Positions 1 through 46,516 of a stretch of DNA of 64,000 nucleotides are shown here, piece by piece. The position numbers and the translations under genes are program-made. How positions within the stretch are numbered: the first letter of the stretch is position 1; each line of letters starts with the position of its first letter. Under the pieces are notes generated by a model, which was not told where the DNA came from, did not search any database, and saw nothing but the letters and a program-made list of their open reading frames with translations. Source of the DNA: Christensenellales bacterium (lineage in GTDB: Bacteria; Bacillota; Clostridia; Christensenellales; JBMNTQ01); NCBI GenBank assembly GCA_050945835.1, contig JBMNTR010000001.1, positions 84,090 to 148,089 on the forward strand, written 5' to 3'.

Positions 1-41
1 GGAGCTATGGCGAAAAATGATCGCTTCTACTCAAAAATTGA

Positions 42-70
42 TTGAATCTAAGCAGTTGTTGTTGTATAAT
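42..70 (+). promoter_or_regulatory. sigma-A-type promoter for gdh
   Basis: TTGAAT (42-47), 17 nt spacer, TATAAT (65-70). GGAGG lies 8 nt before the ATG at 142. Confidence 0.6.
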
Positions 71-141
71 AACTAGGGTCTGAGCTAAGAAGAGTGCGAT
101 ACGCTTTTTATTAGAATTTTAGCAATTTTGGAGGTATAACA

Positions 142-1428
142 ATGGCAGAGGCAGCATATAACCCGTTTCATAACGCGCAAGCACAGTTTGACAAGGTGGC
201 GGATATTCTAAACCTTGACAGTGGCACACGCGAACTTTTAAGGCGGCCCATGAACGAGGTGCATTTTACAATCCCCGTAAAAATGGACGATGGTTCCACA
301 AAGGTTTTTGAAGCCTTCCGGTTTCGCCATAATGATGCAAGGGGCCCGGCAAAAGGCGGAATACGCTTTCATCCCCACGAGACGGCGGACACAGTTCGCG
401 CGCTTTCCATGTGGATGACATGGAAGTGTGCTGTTGTGGATATTCCGCTGGGCGGCGGCAAGGGCGGCGTGGTTTGTGACCCGAGGACGCTTTCCGCGGC
501 AGAGCAGGAAAGGCTTTGCCGGGGTTATGTGCGCCGGCTCGGTGCACAGCTTGGTCCAAATGTGGACGTTCCGGCGCCCGACGTGATGACGAACGGCCAG
601 CACATGCTTTGGATGCTGGACGAATACGAGGCGATCAATAGTGCGCATTATCCTGGAGTGATCACAGGAAAGCCCGTAGGTATGGGCGGATCGCTCGGCC
701 GCACCGAAGCCACCGGTTATGGCATCATCTACGTGTTAAAGGATTTCTTGCAAAAGCAAGGCATGGATATCGCAGGCATGACGGCGAGTATACAAGGATT
801 TGGAAATGTGGCGGAGTACGCCGCACGCATGTATACTGAGCTGGGCGGAAAGATCATGGCTGTATCCTGCTGGAACCAAAACGAGAAAAGAGCCTACACT
901 TATAAGAAAGATGGCGGCTGTGATATCCTTGAGCTGGTCTCGATTAAGGATGCGTTTGGCGGCATAGACAACGAAAAGGCGCTGGCGTTCGGCTATGAGC
1001 TGCTTGAGGGCGACGCATGGATCGCACAGGATGTGGACATACTGATTCCGGCGGCACTCGAAAACCAAATCACGCCTGCCATTATGCCCAAGATCAGCAA
1101 TTCTGTGAAGTTCATCGTGGAGGCGGCAAACGGCCCCACCACCCCTGATTGCGATGCGCTCATCAACGAGCGCGGCATCACGCTGCTTCCGGACTTTTTG
1201 TGCAACGCCGGCGGTGTGACATGCAGTTACTTTGAGCAGGTGCAGTGCAATATGAACTACTTCTGGGACAAGGCCGAAGTGCTTGAGAAGCTCGAATATG
1301 CCATGACAAAGGCGTTTCGTGCAGTGTATGAAATGTCAAAGGAGAGAAATCTGACGCTTCGCGACGCGGCGTATGTAATCTCCATCAACCGCGTGGCGGA
1401 TGCCGTCAAGCTTCGCGGCTGGGTATAG
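142..1428 (+). CDS. gdhA: NAD(P)-specific glutamate dehydrogenase
   Basis: 428 aa. Glu/Leu/Phe/Val dehydrogenase signature IPLGGGKGG and Rossmann motif IQGFGNVA. Strong RBS. Confidence 0.95.
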   Translation: MAEAAYNPFHNAQAQFDKVADILNLDSGTRELLRRPMNEVHFTIPVKMDDGSTKVFEAFRFRHNDARGPAKGGIRFHPHETADTVRALSMWMTWKCAVVDIPLGGGKGGVVCDPRTLSAAEQERLCRGYVRRLGAQLGPNVDVPAPDVMTNGQHMLWMLDEYEAINSAHYPGVITGKPVGMGGSLGRTEATGYGIIYVLKDFLQKQGMDIAGMTASIQGFGNVAEYAARMYTELGGKIMAVSCWNQNEKRAYTYKKDGGCDILELVSIKDAFGGIDNEKALAFGYELLEGDAWIAQDVDILIPAALENQITPAIMPKISNSVKFIVEAANGPTTPDCDALINERGITLLPDFLCNAGGVTCSYFEQVQCNMNYFWDKAEVLEKLEYAMTKAFRAVYEMSKERNLTLRDAAYVISINRVADAVKLRGWV

Positions 1429-1465: not shown

Positions 1466-1546
1466 AAGCCGCCCTTATAAGGGCGGCTTGCGCGCTGTTG
1501 AACTGTATGCGTAACACAGGCGGTGGACACAACGCCTGTGTTACGC
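1466..1546 (+). terminator. two tandem GC-rich hairpins downstream of gdh (no clear U-tract)
   Basis: First hairpin: GCAAGCCGCCC/GGGCGGCTTGC, 11 bp stem at 1466-1493. Second hairpin: GCGTAACACAGGCG/CGCCTGTGTTACGC, 14 bp stem at 1509-1546. Confidence 0.4.
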
Positions 1547-1646
1547 GAAAACCGCATATCGGTCACATCCGCCGATGGATGACACCATGACAAAAAATGC
1601 AATGTGAATAAGAAAATCCGTCATTTTCAAAAGAATTTTTATTTTT

Positions 1647-1676
1647 TTGCAGAAACCGTATTCTCTGGGATATAAT
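1647..1676 (+). promoter_or_regulatory. sigma-A-type promoter
   Basis: TTGCAG (1647-1652), 18 nt spacer, TATAAT (1671-1676). It lies inside the 5' end of the tracked ORF, which argues for a later start codon. Confidence 0.5.
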
Positions 1677-1742
1677 ATGATCAACGTTCGTTTGGATATA
1701 AAAAAGCATTCGTTCATGGCATACATGAAGGGAGGATATACA

Positions 1743-2837
1743 TTGACGTTTGAGAAAAACCGGCCGGTTTGCGTGAAAAAATCGCCCGCGAAGCGGCGGC
1801 CGTATTATAAGAGGATACTCGCATGGGCGCTCGTTGTGCTGATGGTGCTTTTGCTTACGGGCTGTGCACAGTGCATTGTAAAGGTCAACGTGCAGGCTGA
1901 TAAGAGCGGTGATGTGAGCGTGATACTCGGGCTGAACGATATAGCGGCGGCCATGGGCGGCGGTATGCTGGACACCGCAAAAGGCACGTTTGACAGCGCG
2001 GGCTTTGAAGCTTCGGATTATGCATACGGCGGCTATTCGGGATATCAGTTCAGAAGGAGCGCAAACGATCTGCCCGCGGTGCTGAATTCCGGCGTGTTTG
2101 CCTCCTTCGCAAACAGCTTGAGCTTGACGTATGCAACTGAGAGCGGTCATGATACTATAAAGCTGTCCGGTACGGTAGATGTGGACAAGCTGTTGAAAGA
2201 GCATGGCGGTGTGACGGCCGCTCAGGCGCAGGCTTCGGGCGCCGAGCTGAGCTTTCAGGTTACGTTCCCTTACCCTGTTTCGGAACACAACGCCTCCAAG
2301 CTTTCAGAGGACGGCTACACCGCCTACTGGAATCTGTTCGGCGGCGGTGAGCTCTTTGCAAAGGCAACAGACGGTGCCCGGGCAGGCGAAGCGGGTACAG
2401 CCGCAAACACCTCCTTTTTAGATGGCCTGCTCAACAGGATCAAAAGCCCGGAGTTAAGGCCTATACTGCTGCTGGTGGGGGCGGCTGTGCTGCTGGTCAT
2501 CATCATATTGATCATCGCAGGCATTCATCGCAGGCGCAAGAAGAAGCGGCTCGCCCGTATACAACAGGAACGCGCTTCGCGTACACGCGCCTATTCGCAG
2601 CCCCCGCCGTACACACCCAACACGATGTATGCGCAGCCCCCGCCGCCGCCGCAGCCCTATGCGCCGCATACGCCACAGCAGCCATATACACAGCAGCACG
2701 GCTTCGCACAGCCGCAACAGCAGCCTGCCCAGCGCCCATCAGGGCCAATGGCTGACCAACAGACACCAAAGGACACAGCGCCCGCGAAACCGACCCGCAG
2801 GCCGCCCAACCGGGTGATCGGCCCGGATGACGAATAG
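1743..2837 (+). CDS. lipoprotein-like membrane protein with a C-terminal TM helix and a Pro/Gln/Tyr-rich cytoplasmic tail (unknown function)
   Basis: TTG at 1743 lies 7 nt after GGAGG. Signal peptide with lipobox LLLTGC. TM helix PILLLVGAAVLLVIIILIIAG followed by RRRKKKR. Tail reads PPPYTPNTMYAQPPPPPQPYAPHTPQQPY. Maximal ORF is 1647-2837. Confidence 0.6.
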   Translation: MTFEKNRPVCVKKSPAKRRPYYKRILAWALVVLMVLLLTGCAQCIVKVNVQADKSGDVSVILGLNDIAAAMGGGMLDTAKGTFDSAGFEASDYAYGGYSGYQFRRSANDLPAVLNSGVFASFANSLSLTYATESGHDTIKLSGTVDVDKLLKEHGGVTAAQAQASGAELSFQVTFPYPVSEHNASKLSEDGYTAYWNLFGGGELFAKATDGARAGEAGTAANTSFLDGLLNRIKSPELRPILLLVGAAVLLVIIILIIAGIHRRRKKKRLARIQQERASRTRAYSQPPPYTPNTMYAQPPPPPQPYAPHTPQQPYTQQHGFAQPQQQPAQRPSGPMADQQTPKDTAPAKPTRRPPNRVIGPDDE

Positions 2838-16491: not shown

Positions 16492-17019
16492 TTATTGTGA
16501 GATTTTCTTCCTCATGGGGAAAAAACTAAACGCCGTTAAGCCTATCCCCAATATAATGACAGTAAAGGTTATCGTAAAAATGGTGGGCATGGGCTCAATC
16601 TGCGCATACTGCATCGGATCTGAAAAAAATCCAGTCCCGGCGGCATACTGCAAATCAAGCCTCATTGCGTTCAACTGAATCATCCTTAATGAGAAATATT
16701 CCATTATCAACAAAACAAGGCCAACGACGACTGTGATCCAGCCAAAAGTGAATTGCCTTTTCTTCATATTTCTTGCTACAACCTCATATAATTGCGGTGT
16801 TGAAATTCCAACACGGTTCACAACATCCTTTCCAAGCAGCTCATCCGTTGAAATGGAAAATACTTTGCTGAGGGCAAGGACTTTTTCGAGTTCGGGTGAT
16901 GATTGGTCCGTTTCCCACTTCGATATCGCCTGGCGTGATACGCCTATCATTTCGGCAAGCTGCTCTTGCGACAGGCCACTCGCTTTGCGCAGCTGCTGAA
17001 TTCTTTCTCCAATATTCAT
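16492..17019 (-). CDS. XRE-family HTH transcriptional regulator with C-terminal transmembrane segments
   Basis: MNIGERIQQLRKASGLSQEQLAEMIGVSRQAISKWETDQSSP is a Cro/C1 HTH. Three hydrophobic helices follow downstream. Confidence 0.85.
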   Translation of the reverse strand: MNIGERIQQLRKASGLSQEQLAEMIGVSRQAISKWETDQSSPELEKVLALSKVFSISTDELLGKDVVNRVGISTPQLYEVVARNMKKRQFTFGWITVVVGLVLLIMEYFSLRMIQLNAMRLDLQYAAGTGFFSDPMQYAQIEPMPTIFTITFTVIILGIGLTAFSFFPMRKKISQ

Positions 17020-38601: not shown

Positions 38602-39297
38602 TTGTATTGGCCCATGTATTATCGTGATCCATATTTCTGGATCATCATCGTTTGTTTGCTGATCAGCGTAGCCGCGCAGATACGCATCAGCGCAGCTTTT
38701 AAAAAATATTCTAAAATGCGCACACAAAAAGGTTTTTCAGGCCTGCAGGTGGCCACCGGTATTCTGAAGACCAAGGGCTTGTATGAGATACAGATCTGGC
38801 AAACCAAAGGAAAGCTGACCGACCATTACGATCCCAAACGCAATGTCGTGAAGCTCTCCGAGCCGGTGTATGGTTCCAGCTCCATCGCCGCGTGCGCGGT
38901 GGCGGCGCATGAAGCCGCGCATGTGCTGCAGGGTGCGGACGGCTATGGCCCGTATAGACTTCGCCGCGCGCTGGTTCCGATGACGAATCTAGTTTCCAGG
39001 CTTGCGTTTCCGCTGATCCTGCTGGGAATATTTATGGGCTATCCCGCCCTTATTCAAGTTGGCGTGGTCGCCTATGGCGTGGTGCTGGTGTTTCAGTTGG
39101 TGACGCTGCCTGTGGAGTATAACGCGAGCAGCCGCGCGCTGGATGAACTCACGGCGCACGGTTATGTCGTGAGCGACGAGATTCATGCGTGCAGAAAGAT
39201 GCTCAACGCGGCGGCGCTGACGTATGTCGCGGCGGCACTGGTGACGCTTTTGCAGATGCTGCGGCTGGTGTTGCTTGCAAACAGCCGGCGGCGCTAG
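38602..39297 (+). CDS. membrane zinc metallopeptidase (Zn_peptidase_2 / YugP-like)
   Basis: HEAAHVLQ motif. N-terminal and C-terminal TM helices. FKKYSKM motif typical of the family. Confidence 0.8.
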   Translation: MYWPMYYRDPYFWIIIVCLLISVAAQIRISAAFKKYSKMRTQKGFSGLQVATGILKTKGLYEIQIWQTKGKLTDHYDPKRNVVKLSEPVYGSSSIAACAVAAHEAAHVLQGADGYGPYRLRRALVPMTNLVSRLAFPLILLGIFMGYPALIQVGVVAYGVVLVFQLVTLPVEYNASSRALDELTAHGYVVSDEIHACRKMLNAAALTYVAAALVTLLQMLRLVLLANSRRR

Positions 39298-39307
39298 AAA
39301 ATTCTGC

Positions 39308-39336
39308 TTGCATAATCGCAAAGATCGGAATATAAT
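39308..39336 (+). promoter_or_regulatory. sigma-A-type promoter of the aro leader
   Basis: TTGCAT (39308-39313), 17 nt spacer, TATAAT (39331-39336). Confidence 0.65.
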
Positions 39337-39364
39337 AGATCAGACAATGAAAAGGAGAACAGAC

Positions 39365-39460
39365 ATGGCGCAGGTAGGCAACGCAAACTATTTTTACTTT
39401 ATGAGCCGCTTTTGTGGCTATTTTGCGTACCCTCACACAACAGCCGTCCAGAGTCTGTAA
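39365..39460 (+). CDS. candidate aro-operon leader peptide (31 codons, 4 Phe + 4 Tyr)
   Basis: AGGAG lies 7 nt upstream of the ATG. Sequence MAQVGNANYFYFMSRFCGYFAYPHTTAVQSL. A terminator hairpin follows 27 nt downstream. Confidence 0.45.
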   Translation: MAQVGNANYFYFMSRFCGYFAYPHTTAVQSL

Positions 39461-39486
39461 TCTGCTTTAAGCAAATTTTATGAATT

Positions 39487-39516
39487 GAGGCTCTCGATGG
39501 ACGAGAGCCTTTTTTA
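39487..39516 (+). terminator. intrinsic terminator (attenuator) between the leader ORF and aroF
   Basis: AGGCTCTCG-ATGGA-CGAGAGCCT followed by TTTTTT. It ends 24 nt before the aroF ATG. Confidence 0.75.
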
Positions 39517-39539
39517 ATTGTCAGGAGGGAAGAATTGAC

Positions 39540-40583
39540 ATGATCATCATCATGCGGCCGGACGCCAGCGAATGCGAAGTGCAAAACATCGAACACGAAT
39601 TGGAAAACGACGGCCTGCAAGTCCAGAAGAACCTGGGCACACACTGCGTTGTGCTCGGCGTGATCGGGGACACTACCATCGTGGACAAGGAGAAATACAA
39701 TCTGCGCAGCGGCGTGGATCGTATATTGAAAGTGCAGGAGCCTTTTAAAAAGGCCAACAGGAAATTCCATCCCGAGCCCAGCGTAATCGAGGTGGGCGGG
39801 ATTAAAATCGGCGGCGGGCGGCTGTGCGTGGCCGCGGGGCCTTGCTCTGTGGAGAGCGAAGAGCAGATCGAAAGCATCGCGCAATCGGTCAAGCAGAGCG
39901 GCGCGCAGTTCTTGCGCGGCGGCGCATACAAGCCGCGCTCCTCCCCTTATTCGTTCCAGGGGCTGAAGGATGACGGACTCAGGCTTTTACATGAGGCGCG
40001 CAAAGAAACGGGGCTGCCCATCATTTCGGAGCTGCTGGCGCTGGAGCATATGGACGCCTTTTTCCGCTACGACGTGGATGTGATACAGATCGGCGCGCGC
40101 AACATGCAGAATTTTGAATTGCTCAAGCATGTGGGGGAGATCGACAAGCCGGTGATGCTCAAGCGGGGGTTATCCTGCACCATCGAGGAATGGCTGATGT
40201 CGGCGGAATATATCATGTCCAAGGGGAATGAAAAAGTTATCCTTTGCGAGCGGGGTATTAGGACATTCGAAACCTATACGCGCAACACGCTGGATGTAAG
40301 CGCCATACCCGCCGTCAAGCGTTTAAGCCACCTGCCCATCATGGTGGATCCATCGCATGCGGCGGGGCTTTGGTGGATGGTGGAGCCGCTTTCATTGGCG
40401 GCGGTGGCGGCGGGTGCCGACGGGCTGCTGGTGGAGGTGCACAACGACCCGGAACACGCGTTAAGCGACGGCGCGCAGTCCATTACGCCCAAACGTTTTG
40501 CCGGGTTGATGAACAAGATCAGGGTCATCAGCTCGGTGACAGGGCACGATCTGCAGGAGGATCGCTATGCAAATCACAATTAA
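39540..40583 (+). CDS. aroF: 3-deoxy-7-phosphoheptulonate (DAHP) synthase, type I-beta with an N-terminal ferredoxin-like regulatory domain
   Basis: GPCSVES, LRGGAYKPRSSPYSFQGL and DPSHA motifs. An extra N-terminal domain of about 70 aa resembles that of Thermotoga-type DAHPS. Confidence 0.9.
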   Translation: MIIIMRPDASECEVQNIEHELENDGLQVQKNLGTHCVVLGVIGDTTIVDKEKYNLRSGVDRILKVQEPFKKANRKFHPEPSVIEVGGIKIGGGRLCVAAGPCSVESEEQIESIAQSVKQSGAQFLRGGAYKPRSSPYSFQGLKDDGLRLLHEARKETGLPIISELLALEHMDAFFRYDVDVIQIGARNMQNFELLKHVGEIDKPVMLKRGLSCTIEEWLMSAEYIMSKGNEKVILCERGIRTFETYTRNTLDVSAIPAVKRLSHLPIMVDPSHAAGLWWMVEPLSLAAVAAGADGLLVEVHNDPEHALSDGAQSITPKRFAGLMNKIRVISSVTGHDLQEDRYANHN

Positions 40584-41625
40584 CAGCAAACAGGGCGAAA
40601 GCCGTGTGTTCATTGAAAAGGGCTGTCTGCACCGCCGGCTGGCGGATGTGGCCGAAGGGTACGGTGAGGTGCTGGTGGTAAGCGATGAAAACGTGGCGCC
40701 ATTGTATGCCGAAAAAGTGGTGCAGACATTGCTGCACGCGGGCAAAAAGGTGAAGCTGCATGTGATCCCCCCGGGGGAGACAAGCAAGAGCCGGCAAGAG
40801 CTTTTTGCGCTCTATGCAAAGGCGATAGACGCAGGCGTCACCCGCGGCGGCGCGGTCTGTGCGCTGGGCGGCGGCGTGGTGGGCGATCTGGCGGGCTTCG
40901 CCGCGGCCACGCTGTACCGGGGGGTGGGGCTCATTCAAATTCCTACCACGCTGCTCTCTATGGTGGACAGCGCCATCGGCGGCAAGACGGCCATCAACCT
41001 AAGAGAAGGCAAGAACCTGGTCGGCGCGTTCTACCAGCCGCATAGCGCCATCATCGACCCGGATTGCCTGGCTTCTTTGCCCGATCGCGAGCTCAGGTGC
41101 GGGCTGGCGGAGGTGATCAAATACGCGCTGATACGCGACGCGGCGCTGTATGAGGAGCTGCTTGGCTATGATGAGCAGACGATCCAGCCAAGGCTTGCAC
41201 CCATCATCGCGCGCTGCTGTCTGCTTAAAAAGGCATATGTGGAGCAGGACACCTTCGATGTGGGCAGCAGGATGGAGCTGAATTTCGGGCATACGCTGGG
41301 CCACGCGCTGGAAAAGCAGGCCCTTGGACATTTGCTGCACGGGGAGGCTGTGGCCATGGGCATGGCGGCGGCGGCGGGCTGGAGCGAAGCGCTGGGCGTG
41401 TGCGCTGCGGGCACGCGGCAGCGTGTGCTTGAAATCCTCGCGCAATATGGGCTGAAGGTGTGCCCTATGGATGTGAACACCGAATTCCTGAAAAAGGATA
41501 AAAAAGCGTTTGGGGAGGGAATCAATGTGGTGTTGTTGAATCGTATAGGCGATGCGGTGGTGAAGAACCTTCCCATAGAAGAACTTATCCGCATGATTTT
41601 GGAAAGGAATGAATCGGAGGCATAA
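40567..41625 (+). CDS. aroB: 3-dehydroquinate synthase
   Basis: GGGVVGDLAGFAAATLYRGV, TTLLSMVDSAIGGKTAIN and FGHTLGHALE. Confidence 0.9.
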   Translation: MQITINSKQGESRVFIEKGCLHRRLADVAEGYGEVLVVSDENVAPLYAEKVVQTLLHAGKKVKLHVIPPGETSKSRQELFALYAKAIDAGVTRGGAVCALGGGVVGDLAGFAAATLYRGVGLIQIPTTLLSMVDSAIGGKTAINLREGKNLVGAFYQPHSAIIDPDCLASLPDRELRCGLAEVIKYALIRDAALYEELLGYDEQTIQPRLAPIIARCCLLKKAYVEQDTFDVGSRMELNFGHTLGHALEKQALGHLLHGEAVAMGMAAAAGWSEALGVCAAGTRQRVLEILAQYGLKVCPMDVNTEFLKKDKKAFGEGINVVLLNRIGDAVVKNLPIEELIRMILERNESEA

Positions 41626-41628
41626 CAC

Positions 41629-42873
41629 ATGGAAATAACGATTGCGCATGCAAAGCTTTCAGGCACTTTGGCAGTACCCCCCTCCAAGAGCTATGCGCAC
41701 CGCGCGCTCATATGCGCGGCGCTGGCGAAGGGCGATTCCGTGCTGCATCCGGTGGCGTACTGCGACGATGCGGCGGCTACCGCCCATGCGCTGAGTGCCA
41801 TGGGGCTGTGCACCATCGAGCGAAAAGGGGAGACTGTGTTCGTATCAGGGGGCGGACAGGGCAATGCCGGTGCGACCATAGACTGCAACGAATCGGGCTC
41901 CACGCTGCGGTTTTTGCTGCCTGTGTCCCTTTTGTTTGGCGGCAATGTCTTCTCAGGGCGCGGACGGCTGATGAAGCGGCCCATGGAGCCGTTCCAGCAG
42001 CTATGCGCGCAGCAGGGCTTTATGATGAATGTCGTGCAGGATGAGATCAGGCTGCGGGGCATGCTGCGCGACGGGAATTATGAACTGAGCGGCAATGTGA
42101 GCTCGCAGTTTATCAGCGGTATGCTGATGGCCTTGCCCCGTTGCGGCGGGTCCATCACGATCACCACGGCATTGCAGTCCAGCCGGTATGTGGATATGAC
42201 CATAGAGGTGATGCGCGCGTTCGGCGTGACGGTCACACAGACCAACACGGGCTTTCTCATAGAACAACAAAGCTATCAGCCCGCAAAATACACGGTGGAG
42301 GGTGATTATTCCTCTGCGGCTTTCTTCTTGGTGATGGGCGCTTTGGGCGCGCGTGTATGCGTGAAGGGATTGCGGAAGGATTCCCTGCAGCCGGACGCGA
42401 GCCTGCTGCGTATATTGCAGGACATGGGCGCGGATGTGTGTGTGGGTCATGAAGGCGTAAGTGTTGCGGGCGAGGCGCTGCGCGCTGTGGATGTGGACGT
42501 TTCGCAGTACCCCGACCTGCTGCCTGTATTGGCGGTGGCCGCAAGTGCTGTGCAGGGAAAGACACGCTTTTACAATGCGCTGCGGCTGCGCTATAAGGAA
42601 AGCGACCGCATACAGTCCACACAGGATATGATCAACGCGCTGGGCGGAGAGGCGGAATCCACGCAGGACGAGCTGACGGTGTATGGCATGGGCGGGCTTC
42701 GCGGCGGGCGGGTGGACGCATGCGGGGATCACAGGATCGCCATGGCGGCGGCGACGGCCGCCGTATGCTGCACACAGCCCGTGGTCATTCAGGGGGCTGA
42801 GTGTGTGTCCAAGAGCATGCCGGATTTTTTTGAAGCCTACCAGCGCCTGGGCGGCGATGTGCAGGCGACTTAA
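41629..42873 (+). CDS. aroA: 3-phosphoshikimate 1-carboxyvinyltransferase (EPSP synthase)
   Basis: PPSKSYAHRALICAAL, NESGSTLRFL, KESDRI and DHRIAMAAA. Confidence 0.95.
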   Translation: MEITIAHAKLSGTLAVPPSKSYAHRALICAALAKGDSVLHPVAYCDDAAATAHALSAMGLCTIERKGETVFVSGGGQGNAGATIDCNESGSTLRFLLPVSLLFGGNVFSGRGRLMKRPMEPFQQLCAQQGFMMNVVQDEIRLRGMLRDGNYELSGNVSSQFISGMLMALPRCGGSITITTALQSSRYVDMTIEVMRAFGVTVTQTNTGFLIEQQSYQPAKYTVEGDYSSAAFFLVMGALGARVCVKGLRKDSLQPDASLLRILQDMGADVCVGHEGVSVAGEALRAVDVDVSQYPDLLPVLAVAASAVQGKTRFYNALRLRYKESDRIQSTQDMINALGGEAESTQDELTVYGMGGLRGGRVDACGDHRIAMAAATAAVCCTQPVVIQGAECVSKSMPDFFEAYQRLGGDVQAT

Positions 42874-42913
42874 ACCCGCGGCCGCCATCAAGCGAAAGGA
42901 CGGATAGACGGAT

Positions 42914-43999
42914 ATGGGATCTACATGGGGGAAGAATATACGCATCAGCTTATTTGGAGAATCGCATGGCGCCGGTGTGGGCATCGTGCTGGACGGGCTG
43001 CCGCCGGGGTTTGCGCTGGATAAGGCACAGATCACGCGTGAGATGGCGCGCCGCGCGCCGGGAAAGGGCGCATACACCACTCCGCGCGCCGAGAGCGACG
43101 CGGTGCGGGTATTGAGCGGGCTTTATGAAGGCAAGACCACCGGAGCCCCGCTGATGGCGCTCATCGACAACGAAAACGTGCGTTCTGCTGATTATCAAAC
43201 CAACCTGCCCCGGCCTTCACATGCGGATTATACGGCCTTCATCAAATACGGCGGCTTTGCCGATATGCGGGGCGGCGGGCATTTTTCCGGCAGGCTGACC
43301 GCGCCTGTCGTGTTTGCGGGCGCTGTGGCGAAGCAATTGCTGCAAAAAGAGGGCGTGACCATCGGCGCGCATATACTGCGTGTGGGTGATGTGTATGATA
43401 CGCCTTTTGACGCGTGTACCGTAGATGAAGCGCAATTGAAAGCGCTTTGTGAGCAGGTGTTTCCTGTGGTGGACCCGCAGGCTGGAAAGGACATGAAACA
43501 GCGGATAGAAGACGCGCGCGCCCAAGGGGATTCTGTGGGCGGTATGGTGGAATGCGCGGCCGTCGGGCTGATTGCGGGCTGGGGCGAGCCGTTCTTCGAA
43601 AGTGCCGAGAGCGTGATCGCGGGGCTTTTGTTCTCCATCCCGGGGATCAAGGGCGTCACGTTTGGCGCGGGCATGGATTTTGCCTCTTTATGCGGCTCAC
43701 AGGCCAACGATGCGCCGGTGCTTGCGGATGGGTGCGTGCGTACACGCACGAATCACAGCGGCGGCATAGCCGGCGGCATTACAAACGGCATGCCTCTGGT
43801 GGTGCAGGCCGTCATGAAGCCCACACCTTCCATACACAAAGAGCAGCACACGGTGGATCTGAACACCATGCGCCCGGCGAAGCTCGAAATTCAAGGAAGG
43901 CACGACCCTTGCATCGTACCGCGCGCGCTGGCGGCGGTGGAGGCGTGTGTGGCGCTGGGTCTACTGGAGCTTGCGATGGAAAGGAAAAAAAGGATATGA
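42914..43999 (+). CDS. aroC: chorismate synthase
   Basis: FGESHG, RPSHADY, GGGHFSGR and SGGIAGGITNG signatures. Confidence 0.95.
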   Translation: MGSTWGKNIRISLFGESHGAGVGIVLDGLPPGFALDKAQITREMARRAPGKGAYTTPRAESDAVRVLSGLYEGKTTGAPLMALIDNENVRSADYQTNLPRPSHADYTAFIKYGGFADMRGGGHFSGRLTAPVVFAGAVAKQLLQKEGVTIGAHILRVGDVYDTPFDACTVDEAQLKALCEQVFPVVDPQAGKDMKQRIEDARAQGDSVGGMVECAAVGLIAGWGEPFFESAESVIAGLLFSIPGIKGVTFGAGMDFASLCGSQANDAPVLADGCVRTRTNHSGGIAGGITNGMPLVVQAVMKPTPSIHKEQHTVDLNTMRPAKLEIQGRHDPCIVPRALAAVEACVALGLLELAMERKKRI

Positions 44000-45099
44000 G
44001 CCTTACGGAATACAGAAAAGAGATCGACGCGATCGATGCGCACATGCTGGAGCTGCTGCAAAAGCGCATGGACGTTGCGCGCAAGGTGGGCGCATACAAG
44101 GCAGAGCACGGAATGGCGGTTACGGATGCGGCGCGGGAGAAAGAGATCATCCACATGCGGCAGCAACAGGCGGAGAATGCGGATTACGCCGCATATGTCG
44201 CACAATTCATGCGGTGTGTGATGGAATTGAGCAAGGCGGAGCAGCGCAAGGTGATGCCTGCATGTGAGCTTGCAAAACCGCACGCGGAAGAGAAAGAGCT
44301 GATCGTCGCTTATCAGGGCATAGCGGGCGCTTATGGCGAGCTGGCCGCGCGCGCCTATTTTCCTGAAGCCGCGCTTTGTCCGGTTTCGGCGTTTGACGAT
44401 GTGTTCTGCGCCGTGATGCAGGAGCGGGCGGACTATGGCGTTGTGCCTGCGGATAACGTATACGCCGGTGCGGTGATGGATGTCTATGAGCTGCTGACCA
44501 AAAACGATTGCTTTATCGTAGGCGAGCAGATGGTGGGTGTGCAGCACTGTCTGCTGGGTCTGTCCGGCGTGCGCTTGAGCGATATCAAAGAGGTGTATTC
44601 GCATCCGCAGGCGCTTGCGCAGTGCCGGGAGGTCATACAGGCGAACGGCTGGCGCAGACATACCACGGACAACACGGCGTCGGCTGCGAAAGCTGTGCGG
44701 GATATGCAGGACAAAACCTGTGCCGCCATCGCGTCGCCTGAGTGCGCGGAGGAGTACGGCCTTCACGTGCTAAACGGCTGCCTGCGCGCAAACAACCAGA
44801 CTCGATTTTTGATACTGGGCCGGCAGATGCGGTGTGACGAAAGCAGCGACAAGACGAGCATCGTGTTTACAACCCGGCATGAGCAGGGTGCGCTGTGCGA
44901 TGCGCTCGCCTGTTTTAAGCACGAACGCATCAATCTGTTAAAAATTGAGTCCTGTCCGTCTGCTGTGCGGTGGGAATATGATTTCTTTGCGGATTTTGAA
45001 GGATCGGTGCAGGAGGCGCATGTCCAACGCGCGTTGTCGGCGCTTGAAAAAATCGCGAAGGTACGCGTCTTAGGATGTTACAGAGCGTGCAGGGCATAA
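43996..45099 (+). CDS. pheA: bifunctional chorismate mutase / prephenate dehydratase with a C-terminal ACT domain
   Basis: ATGA overlap with aroC. LTEYRKEIDAIDAHMLELLQKRMDVARKVGAYK is the chorismate mutase part. YQGIAGAYGE...TRFLILG is the prephenate dehydratase part, followed by ACT. The tracked ORF 43552-45099 over-extends into aroC. Confidence 0.9.
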   Translation: MSLTEYRKEIDAIDAHMLELLQKRMDVARKVGAYKAEHGMAVTDAAREKEIIHMRQQQAENADYAAYVAQFMRCVMELSKAEQRKVMPACELAKPHAEEKELIVAYQGIAGAYGELAARAYFPEAALCPVSAFDDVFCAVMQERADYGVVPADNVYAGAVMDVYELLTKNDCFIVGEQMVGVQHCLLGLSGVRLSDIKEVYSHPQALAQCREVIQANGWRRHTTDNTASAAKAVRDMQDKTCAAIASPECAEEYGLHVLNGCLRANNQTRFLILGRQMRCDESSDKTSIVFTTRHEQGALCDALACFKHERINLLKIESCPSAVRWEYDFFADFEGSVQEAHVQRALSALEKIAKVRVLGCYRACRA

Positions 45100-45103
45100 A
45101 AAT

Positions 45104-45131
45104 GCGGCGGTGATCCGTAGATCACCGCCGC
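45104..45131. terminator. hairpin between convergent pheA and aroE
   Basis: 12 bp stem GCGGCGGTGATC/GATCACCGCCGC with a 4 nt loop. The T-run is on the minus-strand side only. Confidence 0.7.
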
Positions 45132-45140
45132 CGGGAGACT

Positions 45141-46019
45141 TTATTTGGTGGTCAGCACTTTATGTGCGGCTGTGCGTGCTTTTTCATAGGCTTCCTTGTC
45201 GACCTTGAGCCCGAGCAGGCAGTTGAGCACCAGCATCGCCTGAAAGAGCAGCATGCCCAGACCGTCGATGGTGTGCAGCTTGCGTCTTCTTGCATGCCTT
45301 AGGATTTCCGTTTCGATGGGGTTGTATATGACATCCATCACGATGGCGTTCTCCGGAAGCTCGTTGATGAAGGCCAGGCTCCTGTAATCCGCGCCGGTGT
45401 GCTTCATGCCCAGCGAGCTCGCTTGTATGAGTATATCCGCTTCATGGCAGCTGACTTCCAATTCGTTGGGGGTGAGCCCGCCGAAATAGGTTTCGATGCC
45501 GTGTTCCAGGTTGATCAGACTGGCCATATTTTCCGCCTTGCTCACGGTGCGGTTCAACAGCGTGATGCGCTGCACACCCTCACGTGCCAAGGCGTCGCAG
45601 ATGGTGCCTGTCACATCGCCGGCGCCCAGCACCACCACGCGCTTGTCGAACAAGTCCACACCTTCGTTCTTGATGGCGAGCACAAGGCCGTCACCGTCGA
45701 ACATATGTCCATAAAGCTTTTCATTCTCCACGCGCACCGTGTTGGCCGCGCCAAACAGGCTGACCGTATCGCTCAGCTCGTAGAGATAGGGGAGTATGGC
45801 CGCCTTGTGCGGCATGGTGACATTGAAACCCACCATGTTCATCATGGGGAGGCTTTCGCGGAATCTGTTCAGATCCCCCTGCTTGACATGAAAAGGCAGA
45901 TAGACGGCGTTGATGTCGTAGTAATCGAAGATGGTGTTGTGCACCAACGGGGAGACGCTGTGGGCAACCGGGTCCCCGACCACGCCCAATATCAGCGCAT
46001 TGGTATCAATTATACTCAT
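45141..46019 (-). CDS. aroE: shikimate dehydrogenase
   Basis: LGVVGDPVAHSVSPLVHN, NVTMPHK and VLGAGDVTGT. ATG at 46019 after GGAGGAG. Confidence 0.9.
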   Translation of the reverse strand: MSIIDTNALILGVVGDPVAHSVSPLVHNTIFDYYDINAVYLPFHVKQGDLNRFRESLPMMNMVGFNVTMPHKAAILPYLYELSDTVSLFGAANTVRVENEKLYGHMFDGDGLVLAIKNEGVDLFDKRVVVLGAGDVTGTICDALAREGVQRITLLNRTVSKAENMASLINLEHGIETYFGGLTPNELEVSCHEADILIQASSLGMKHTGADYRSLAFINELPENAIVMDVIYNPIETEILRHARRRKLHTIDGLGMLLFQAMLVLNCLLGLKVDKEAYEKARTAAHKVLTTK

Positions 46020-46075
46020 GGAACTCCTCCTGAATCGCACCGCACCTCCAACAAAATCTTATGCTGAAGGAAAGG

Positions 46076-46516
46076 ATGCAGACCATAATGAAAAAAATGA
46101 TGCTCATCAACGGACCAAATCTCAACAGGCTGGGCGTGCGGGAACCGGGGGTTTACGGCAGCCGTACGCTTGCGCAAATCGAGGATGCGTTGAAACAAAA
46201 AGCAAAAGAACTCGGTGTATCGCTGGAAACAAGGCAATACAACGCGGAAGGAGGCATCATCGACGCACTGCACAGTGCGGATGAGTATGACGGTGTCCTG
46301 CTCAATGCCGGCGCGTATACCCATTACAGCTACGCCATACGCGACGCCATCGCATCCATCAAGGCGCCGGTGATTGAAGTCCATCTCTCCAACATCTATG
46401 CAAGGGAACCCTTCAGGCACACATCCGTGATCGCGCCTGTGTGCAGGGGTCAGATTACCGGACTGGGCGAGACGGGGTATCTGCTTGCGTTACATGCCCT
46501 GTTAAAGTGCATATAA
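46076..46516 (+). CDS. aroQ: type II 3-dehydroquinate dehydratase
   Basis: MLINGPNLNRLGVREPGVYG, NAGAYTHYSYAIRDA and EVHLSNI. The start is ATG 46076 or 46088. Confidence 0.9.
   Translation: MQTIMKKMMLINGPNLNRLGVREPGVYGSRTLAQIEDALKQKAKELGVSLETRQYNAEGGIIDALHSADEYDGVLLNAGAYTHYSYAIRDAIASIKAPVIEVHLSNIYAREPFRHTSVIAPVCRGQITGLGETGYLLALHALLKCI

Follow-up and report, generated by a model that had tools for sequence, protein, structure and literature searches.

A probable Phe/Tyr-responsive leader-peptide attenuator upstream of the aroF-pheA operon of a Christensenellales bacterium and leaders of similar design in other Bacillota

The region upstream of aroF was analyzed in a 64,000-nucleotide (nt) stretch of contig JBMNTR010000001.1, here referred to as the window, which comes from a metagenome-assembled genome (MAG) of a Christensenellales bacterium (coordinates are those of the window unless a locus is named). 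This region contains a short open reading frame (ORF) rich in Phe and Tyr codons followed by an intrinsic terminator, and is very probably a ribosome-mediated attenuator, which in our modeling would couple transcription of the aroF-aroB-aroA-aroC-pheA operon (39540–45099, plus strand) to the charging of tRNA-Phe and tRNA-Tyr. An attenuator of this kind had been proposed from the letters of the DNA alone, and every computational test named in that original prediction supported it.

The leader ORF (MAQVGNANYFYFMSRFCGYFAYPHTTAVQSL, 39365–39460, plus strand) opens with the ATG at 39365, 7 nt after an AGGAG Shine-Dalgarno (SD) sequence that was read directly (39353–39357, plus strand), and runs for 31 codons to a TAA stop (39458–39460). 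As originally described, and confirmed here by reading the sequence, it has four Phe and four Tyr codons, or 8 of 31, and no Trp. On the plus strand these putative regulatory codons are Y9, F10, Y11 and F12 (39389–39400), F16 (39410–39412), Y19 and F20 (39419–39424) and Y22 (39428–39430). The same 31-codon ORF was also predicted by an independent gene caller (Logan contig). The best 12-codon window of the leader holds 7 aromatic residues, compared with a mean of 1.6 when the best SD-preceded small ORF was taken from each of 200 dinucleotide shuffles of the 300 nt 5′ of aroF (p ≤ 0.005). Furthermore, a census of both strands of the 64 kilobases (kb; 54% GC), which set aside a longer TTG-started version of the leader’s own frame, returned 3,237 ORFs of 10–65 codons, 540 of them with an SD-like motif. 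The leader was the most aromatic of these 540, all others having at most 5 aromatic residues per 12 codons. Its own SD sequence and start codon, together with the enrichment in codons for the amino acids made through the operon, are features of a classical leader-peptide attenuator. Upstream of the ORF, a promoter (39308–39336, plus strand) was read directly as a TTGCAT −35 hexamer (39308–39313), a 17-nt spacer and a TATAAT −10 hexamer (39331–39336). Hexamers and spacer lie where they had been reported, and the description of the promoter as near-consensus was too generous: the −35 hexamer agrees with TTGACA at just 3 of its 6 positions, which is also why a consensus scan did not list this promoter.

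Between the leader ORF and aroF there is a terminator, as in classical attenuators (39487–39515, plus strand). Its arms, AGGCUCUCG (39488–39496) and CGAGAGCCU (39502–39510), enclose the loop AUGGA and are followed by a T run (39510–39515). The hairpin and T run had been recognized before with a stem of 9 base pairs (bp), which extends to 10 bp (39487–39511). The terminator fold (−16.9 kcal/mol, z −5.9) was equaled in none of 200 shuffles, and in a consensus scan the site was the third strongest terminator-like site between 36 and 50 kb. The distance from the leader stop codon to the hairpin is 27 nt, and that from the end of the T run to the aroF ATG (39540) is 24 nt.

The last sense codons of the leader can form an antiterminator with this hairpin. 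Its 5′ strand is CCGUC-C-AGAGUCU (39444–39456, plus strand) and its 3′ strand, comprising the terminator 5′ arm and part of the loop, was identified by folding as AGGCUCU-C-GAUGG (39488–39500, plus strand). The 7-bp pairing proposed originally, AGAGUCU (39450–39456) with AGGCUCU (39488–39494), is present as described, but the complete pairing is longer, 12 bp, and reaches the terminator loop through CCGUC (39444–39448) and GAUGG (39496–39500), with a C/C mismatch between the two helices. The segment 39441–39501, which represents the RNA that is free with a ribosome at the last aromatic codon and the terminator 3′ arm not yet transcribed, folds at −17.6 kcal/mol (z −2.29), with a small hairpin inside the intervening loop. 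A duplex of the stop region (from 20 nt before the stop codon to 15 nt past it) with the 5′ arm and loop of the terminator was calculated at −17.9 kcal/mol (z −3.46, p = 0.007).

Ribosome position was modeled with an assumed footprint of −15 to +12 and a 28-nt mask at each aromatic codon in turn. Stalls at Y11, F12, Y19, F20 and Y22 yielded the antiterminator in the partial transcript and sequestered 8 of the 10 nt of the terminator 5′ arm. With the stop codon in the A site, the antiterminator 5′ strand would be hidden under the ribosome; the RNA then free, from 39471 only, folds at −3.5 kcal/mol with 1 of 10 nt of the terminator arm sequestered. In thermodynamic modeling the two structures are mutually exclusive and depend on where the ribosome stands, as the original prediction had anticipated for folding under ribosome masks.

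Several observations weigh against an attenuator. Support for it in this element and organism is computational throughout. When full-length RNA was folded at equilibrium, the terminator prevailed wherever the ribosome was placed, and therefore the switch must be kinetic, as it is in classical attenuators. Under the 28-nt mask, stalls at Y9, F10 and F16 let the SD–start region pair with 39444–39458, and the terminator was predicted; with the mask at the stop codon, weak long-range pairing of the terminator arm was seen. The terminator arm was also paired upstream in about 70% of shuffled controls, so that only energies discriminate, and this uninformative count was replaced by the energy-based, position-specific test given above. 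When the best partner of the terminator 5′ arm alone was sought across the whole leader, the result was not significant (mean z −0.47), and in the window this analysis picked a strand (UGAGCCG, −9.7 kcal/mol) in the 5′ arm of a hairpin within the ORF, P1. Finally, the aromatic codons of the leader are scattered and do not form one long tandem run.

Hairpin P1 (AGCCGC-UUUU-GUGGCU followed by AUUUUGCG; 39404–39419, plus strand; −9.8 kcal/mol, z −2.76) was flagged as terminator-like by a simple scan. In trp and his leaders, a pause hairpin synchronises the polymerase with the first ribosome, and by analogy P1 and its U-rich tail are a candidate transcription pause hairpin; a hairpin of this type could possibly be a weak early terminator instead. 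Two other roles for P1 were rejected. Its 5′ arm is not the main antiterminator, since a ribosome stalled at codons 9–16 would cover UGAGCCG. The classical 1:2/2:3/3:4 scheme with P1 as 1:2 does not apply either, as the P1 3′ arm GUGGCU resembles the terminator 5′ arm and is not complementary to it. A further pairing, between 39356–39370 (plus strand) and 39444–39458, dominates the minimum free energy fold of ribosome-free RNA and is a possible anti-antiterminator which, if real, would bring about termination when the leader is untranslated. It is weakly supported in these models and is given little weight because it was not seen in the closest relative (below).

What the computation shows (the parts and their statistics, folds that exclude one another and a conserved design) can be joined, through inferred translation of the ORF, stalling, pausing and regulatory outcome, into the following model. 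Transcription would start just past the −10 hexamer, at about 39343, and a ribosome would load at the AGGAG/ATG (39365) and translate the 31-codon leader, with P1 and the U-rich tract probably pausing RNA polymerase until the ribosome arrives. When charged Phe-tRNA and Tyr-tRNA are plentiful, the ribosome would reach the stop codon at 39458 and cover 39444–39456; the terminator (39487–39511) and T run would then form and the transcript would end about 24 nt before aroF. When either charged tRNA is scarce, the ribosome would stall at one of the eight Phe/Tyr codons (9–12, 16, 19, 20 and 22). Even a stall at the last of these, Y22, should leave the RNA from 39444 onward free, in which case CCGUC-C-AGAGUCU may capture the emerging AGGCUCU-C-GAUGG (39488–39500), taking up the terminator 5′ arm and allowing read-through into the operon.

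The design is kept in relatives. The nearest aroF in a collection of 5.8 billion proteins is 70% identical and belongs to the closest related locus, L082, which has the same synteny of a Zn-peptidase gene, a 332-nt spacer and aroF-aroB-aroA. The L082 spacer contains TTGCGA-17-TATAAT, GGAAGGAG, a TTG-started ORF (MATNMGRNYYWFIGRFSGYFALPELDRAGALTN) and a strong terminator. The two leader peptides align over NY[FY][YW]F..RF.GYFA.P, and a nucleotide alignment of about 55 nt includes the in-ORF hairpin, which in L082 is GGCCGC-UUUA-GCGGCU followed by AUUUUGCG. The two loci differ in sequence at the terminator, at the antiterminator strand and over the last third of the peptide. Pairing nevertheless persists in L082, between the end of the ORF (GGGGGCUUU) and the terminator arm of that locus (AAGGCCCUC; −16.9 kcal/mol, z −2.74, p = 0.017), which is the pattern expected if the pairing rather than the sequence is under selection. 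The same order of leader, terminator and aroF occurs behind pdxS/pdxT in L085 and behind a divergent gene in L086, and a TTGnnn-17-TATAAT/TATACT layout lies 5′ of the leaders of L082 and L085. L086 has divergent DAHP synthase paralogues (1–969, minus strand, and 1501–2502, plus strand), and there the Phe/Tyr leader and terminator were found only before the paralogue that heads an aroB-aroA operon. In another locus (L084, 60–2796; aroF identity 67%) the gene order is different: an aroF of 431 amino acids (aa), with an N-terminal extension, lies after pheA and before a prephenate dehydrogenase gene, and no leader was seen directly 5′ of aroF.

To this comparison we added a wider survey of 80 loci from an aroF alignment, at one genome per species, and 3 more found by exact-protein look-ups, counting as a leader any small ORF in the 300 nt 5′ of aroF that follows an SD sequence and reaches 6 or more aromatic residues per 12 codons. 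The original expectation that relatives keep a Phe/Tyr-rich small ORF and terminator was borne out by L082 and, beyond it, by this sample: 34 of the 82 aroF loci other than the window carry such an ORF, 31 of them at p ≤ 0.01 against shuffles and 32 also with a strong terminator. Carriers include C. difficile (MKGILKELTAKLYSFYYFMFWGFYFSAGYFFYKN...), Veillonella (MTNQISLTAKQYFYWFFIQRTGKELFVMR), Pelosinus and Acholeplasma (MIHLNSYYYFYHM); a further example is Maliibacterium (MVNLSTQFYFSFGCYYFYGSFFGLGKTGDRGCHAMAC). No such leader was found at the aroF loci sampled from Nitrospirota, Thermodesulfovibrionales, Anaerolineales and Thermotogae. Median values were 30 codons for the leader, 33.5 nt for the gap from stop codon to terminator and 29 nt from terminator to aroF. 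Phe makes up 17% of leader residues, Tyr 12% and Trp 1.3%, and the Tyr codons TAT (81) and TAC (71) are used almost equally, which places the signal at the level of the codon or amino acid rather than mere U-richness. The aligned peptides share only a loose template, in which two aromatic blocks lie between an N-terminus and a tail that both vary.

RNA structure is shared as well. Across 43 leaders the in-ORF hairpin had a mean z of −1.40 (p = 3e-7); it lies inside the aromatic block, its loop usually consists of UUU/UAU codons, and a U-rich tract follows. Across the class, the stop region (−20 to +15) was likewise more complementary than expected to the 5′ arm and loop of the terminator (n = 40, mean z −0.96, t-test p = 2.4e-4), with 10 of these leaders individually at p < 0.05. 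In three Oscillospiraceae-type loci (L007, L062 and L071) the terminator 5′ arm can pair with the 3′ arm of the in-ORF hairpin, for example CCUUGCC with GGCAAGG in L007, which is the textbook 1:2/2:3/3:4 arrangement. In the window and L082, by contrast, the antiterminator strand is formed by the end of the ORF, and there seem to be two architectural variants within the leader class. Leave-out nucleotide profiles (nhmmer) were marginal (E = 0.046 and 0.47): the window leader was reached only at E = 0.046, so that common descent of the whole class is not shown. A minus-strand hit at 16508–16590 beat the real leader (E = 0.01) and was discarded as spurious; this stretch belongs to the 3′ portion of a 183-aa ORF whose codons are T-rich. 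Clostridia-like aroF genes (55–59% identity) were also observed on contigs binned as Barnesiella, Alloprevotella, Victivallaceae, Planctomycetaceae and Eggerthellaceae (L011, L042, L066, L074 and L024), which are probably mis-binned contigs or horizontal transfers; L011 and L074 also have a Phe/Tyr leader and L024 a T-box.

Four Bacillota-type loci lacking a Phe/Tyr leader have a T-box (RF00230) directly 5′ of aroF. Covariance models located these at 2232–2465 in L017, at 2168–2419 and 1716–1979 (minus strand) in L024, at 1169–1454 in L040 and at 2161–2414 in L041. The L017 T-box has UAC (Tyr) as its apparent specifier, taken as the three nucleotides that follow the conserved GAA in the specifier loop. 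The T-boxes of leader-less loci occupy the identical position, which suggests that the two sensors swap at one slot. The Rfam T-box model had no match in the window, a negative result that is meaningful because the same search detects T-boxes before aroF in these four loci.

Four other explanations of the element were weighed, which together we consider unlikely. The strongest of them, itself improbable, is that the terminator is run by a trans-acting factor of the TRAP, PyrR or LicT kind, or by a ligand through an unrecognised riboswitch, with the small ORF incidental or modulatory. It is consistent with a leader RNA whose overall structure exceeds that of shuffles (z −4.0) and with P1 and the U-rich tracts as a possible binding site, and the link between translation and termination does rest on computation. 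However, the searches for known elements were negative. Rfam 15 revealed no known leader, T-box or riboswitch: 38800–40000 matched none of the 4227 families at E ≤ 10, the Phe_leader family (RF01859) included, and the whole window gave none at gathering score; nor was there any match on 20 leader-bearing loci, Acholeplasma included. Against a TRAP criterion of 9–11 (G/U)AG triplets 2–3 nt apart, 39343–39540 holds eight scattered triplets with a longest correctly spaced chain of 1. The original prediction had seen neither a T-box nor TRAP triplet repeats, and had named a search for known leaders in Rfam as a check; on both points it holds. Moreover, what is conserved across divergent sequences is the SD sequence, start codon, open frame and Phe/Tyr codons (with both Tyr codons in use), with no conserved nucleotide motif, and no candidate regulator gene is adjacent, the neighbors being the Zn-peptidase and aro genes.

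A reading in which the small ORF encodes a functional hydrophobic or aromatic small protein, such as a membrane peptide, and the hairpin serves, independently of tRNA charging, as a partial terminator or processing signal, appears still less probable. Gene callers do call these ORFs, and public records hold those of several species as hypothetical proteins, but only aromatic richness and the loose two-block template are conserved; N- and C-termini vary freely, lengths range from 13 to 53 aa and mean column identity is 23%. Pfam and NCBIfam returned no family at E ≤ 10 for the five leader peptides searched, and the ORF invariably comes with a terminator and aroF, irrespective of which gene lies upstream. 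That same independence of the upstream gene bears on a reading we rate as similarly improbable, in which the ORF arose by chance, the hairpin is the terminator of the upstream Zn-metallopeptidase gene (38602–39297, Pfam) and aroF has its own constitutive start further downstream. In its favor, the hairpin lies 190 nt past the stop codon of the upstream gene (39297) and a weak promoter-like site overlaps the aroF start. Against it, there is a TATAAT promoter between that gene and the ORF, which is conserved in L082 and L085. The recurrence of the design behind the unrelated upstream genes of L085 and L086 and an aromatic enrichment far beyond chance also argue against it. Least probable of all is a TnaC-type sensor, in which the nascent peptide would arrest the ribosome on free Phe/Tyr instead of uncharged tRNA: an aromatic-rich leader translated close to a terminator would suit it and the computed results fit codon-level and peptide-level stalling alike, but arrest peptides keep the residues near the arrest site, whereas here not even L082 and the window share the C-terminal third. 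In addition, it would make little sense for excess product to switch on a biosynthetic operon, and T-boxes, which sense uncharged tRNA, fill the same slot elsewhere.

The operon downstream of the attenuator was assigned by Pfam on the plus strand as aroF (39540–40583, ATG at 39540), a DAHP synthase with an N-terminal ferredoxin-like domain, aroB (40567–41625), aroA (41629–42873), aroC (42914–43999) and pheA (43996–45099), which agrees with the earlier description of aro genes ending in chorismate mutase/prephenate dehydratase; on these assignments its products are chorismate and prephenate/phenylpyruvate. The start of pheA was re-determined as the ATG at 43996, since the mechanical ORF list runs the gene too far, out to 43552, and its overlap with the aroC stop codon (ATGA, 43996–43999) suggests translational coupling. 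In Thermotoga maritima the ferredoxin-like N-domain of such a DAHP synthase is an allosteric site for feedback inhibition by Tyr and Phe; if its role is the same here, enzyme activity and transcription would both answer to Phe and Tyr. A weak promoter-like site between the terminator and aroF (39518–39547, TTGTCA-18-GATCAT, 9 of 12 matches), the one that overlaps the aroF start, would if active give a basal transcript bypassing the attenuator.

Beyond pheA, a strong terminator-like 12-bp hairpin (45104–45131) separates the operon from the convergent aroE (45141–46040, minus strand, Pfam). The terminator scan reported this hairpin on the minus strand only, and from its position we infer that it is the plus-strand end of the pheA operon. 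Past aroE lies aroQ (46061–46516, plus strand). As called, these two genes are divergent and only 20 nt apart, which suggests that aroE probably begins downstream of its called GTG; this stretch (45141–46516) showed no leader-like ORF.

Beyond the window, we are inclined, by a modest balance, to see the element as one of a large unnamed class of dual Phe/Tyr-sensing attenuators that would be a main control of aroF across Clostridia and neighboring Bacillota (Negativicutes, Peptostreptococcaceae, Oscillospiraceae, Christensenellales and Acholeplasma). Its template would be two aromatic blocks flanking a pause-like in-ORF hairpin, with an antiterminator strand at the stop codon; the class would alternate with T-boxes, explain termination before aroF in C. 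difficile and absorb a motif described from Acholeplasma, uORFC-13-1. About 40% of the sampled aroF loci have a Phe/Tyr leader and terminator, among them those of the medically relevant C. difficile and Veillonella parvula and of many gut Clostridia. These leaders go unrecognised by Rfam, Pfam and NCBIfam, and where they are annotated it is as hypothetical proteins. Better annotation would follow from recognising the class, as would a mechanism for premature termination at C. difficile aroF, a natural example of exchange between T-boxes and leader peptides, and a compact Phe/Tyr-responsive switch for engineering anaerobes. The mechanism is a textbook one, which limits the conceptual gain.

Amino acid operons of Bacillota are usually described as T-box regulated, with leader-peptide attenuators as rare exceptions, and ‘regular’ leader peptides in Firmicutes have been called a noteworthy rarity (Naville and Gautheret; PMC2965389). 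Full-text literature searches, which covered sources outside subscription-only literature, found no description of a Clostridia aroF leader. T-box leaders share with the window element their position, the terminator/antiterminator logic and the signal, aromatic tRNA charging; they differ in binding uncharged tRNA directly and needing no translation, and the window has no T-box. In C. difficile, premature termination in the aroF 5′ untranslated region (UTR) was reported in rich media with no known riboregulator (Fuchs et al., 2021; PMC8237595). The C. difficile locus in our sample (L015) has a Phe/Tyr/Trp-rich leader ORF (17 of 51 residues aromatic) and a terminator, the same design as in the window, and the reported event is a short transcript before aroF. 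The publication gives no mechanism, and the L015 leader, which aligns with that of the window only in the aromatic template, offers a candidate one.

Among described attenuators, E. coli pheL-pheA (RF01859) resembles the window in its product-rich leader ORF, its terminator/antiterminator and its control of a chorismate mutase/prephenate dehydratase. In contrast to the window, pheL has Phe runs only, belongs to Gammaproteobacteria and controls pheA alone, whereas the window mixes Phe and Tyr codons, controls an operon headed by aroF, has no match to the covariance model and, unlike pheL, places the antiterminator 5′ strand at the very end of the ORF. The aroR leader of C. glutamicum (Phe-Tyr-Phe) was demonstrated experimentally to attenuate the aroF operon (Neshat et al., 2014, as summarized in a review, PMC11802643), and according to the same review only Phe limitation is effective. 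In that summary aroR is like the window in having a mixed Phe/Tyr leader before an operon headed by a DAHP synthase gene; it differs in coming from Actinobacteria and in having three reported aromatic residues compared with eight, and on this comparison by description homology is unlikely. A third described design is uORFC-13-1, predicted before aroF with an upstream ORF of Phe codons and proposed to act by ribosome-mediated attenuation, and reported only from Acholeplasma and environmental sequences in 24 examples (Brewer et al., 2021; PMC8632094). It shares with the window the location 5′ of aroF, a promoter, ribosome-binding site, start codon, Phe codons, base-paired element and terminator. 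The 13-aa leader of Acholeplasma oculi (L073) does not align with that of the window, and the uORFC-13-1 model is not in Rfam 15, which gave no match on this locus. With the leader profile reaching the window only at E = 0.046, we do not file the element as a homolog of any named family, and none is demonstrated by sequence. The element would work like known attenuators and shares their architecture; the mechanism has precedents in pheL, aroR-aroF and uORFC-13-1, and the novelty, which is modest, lies in its wide unannotated spread in Clostridia and their allies.

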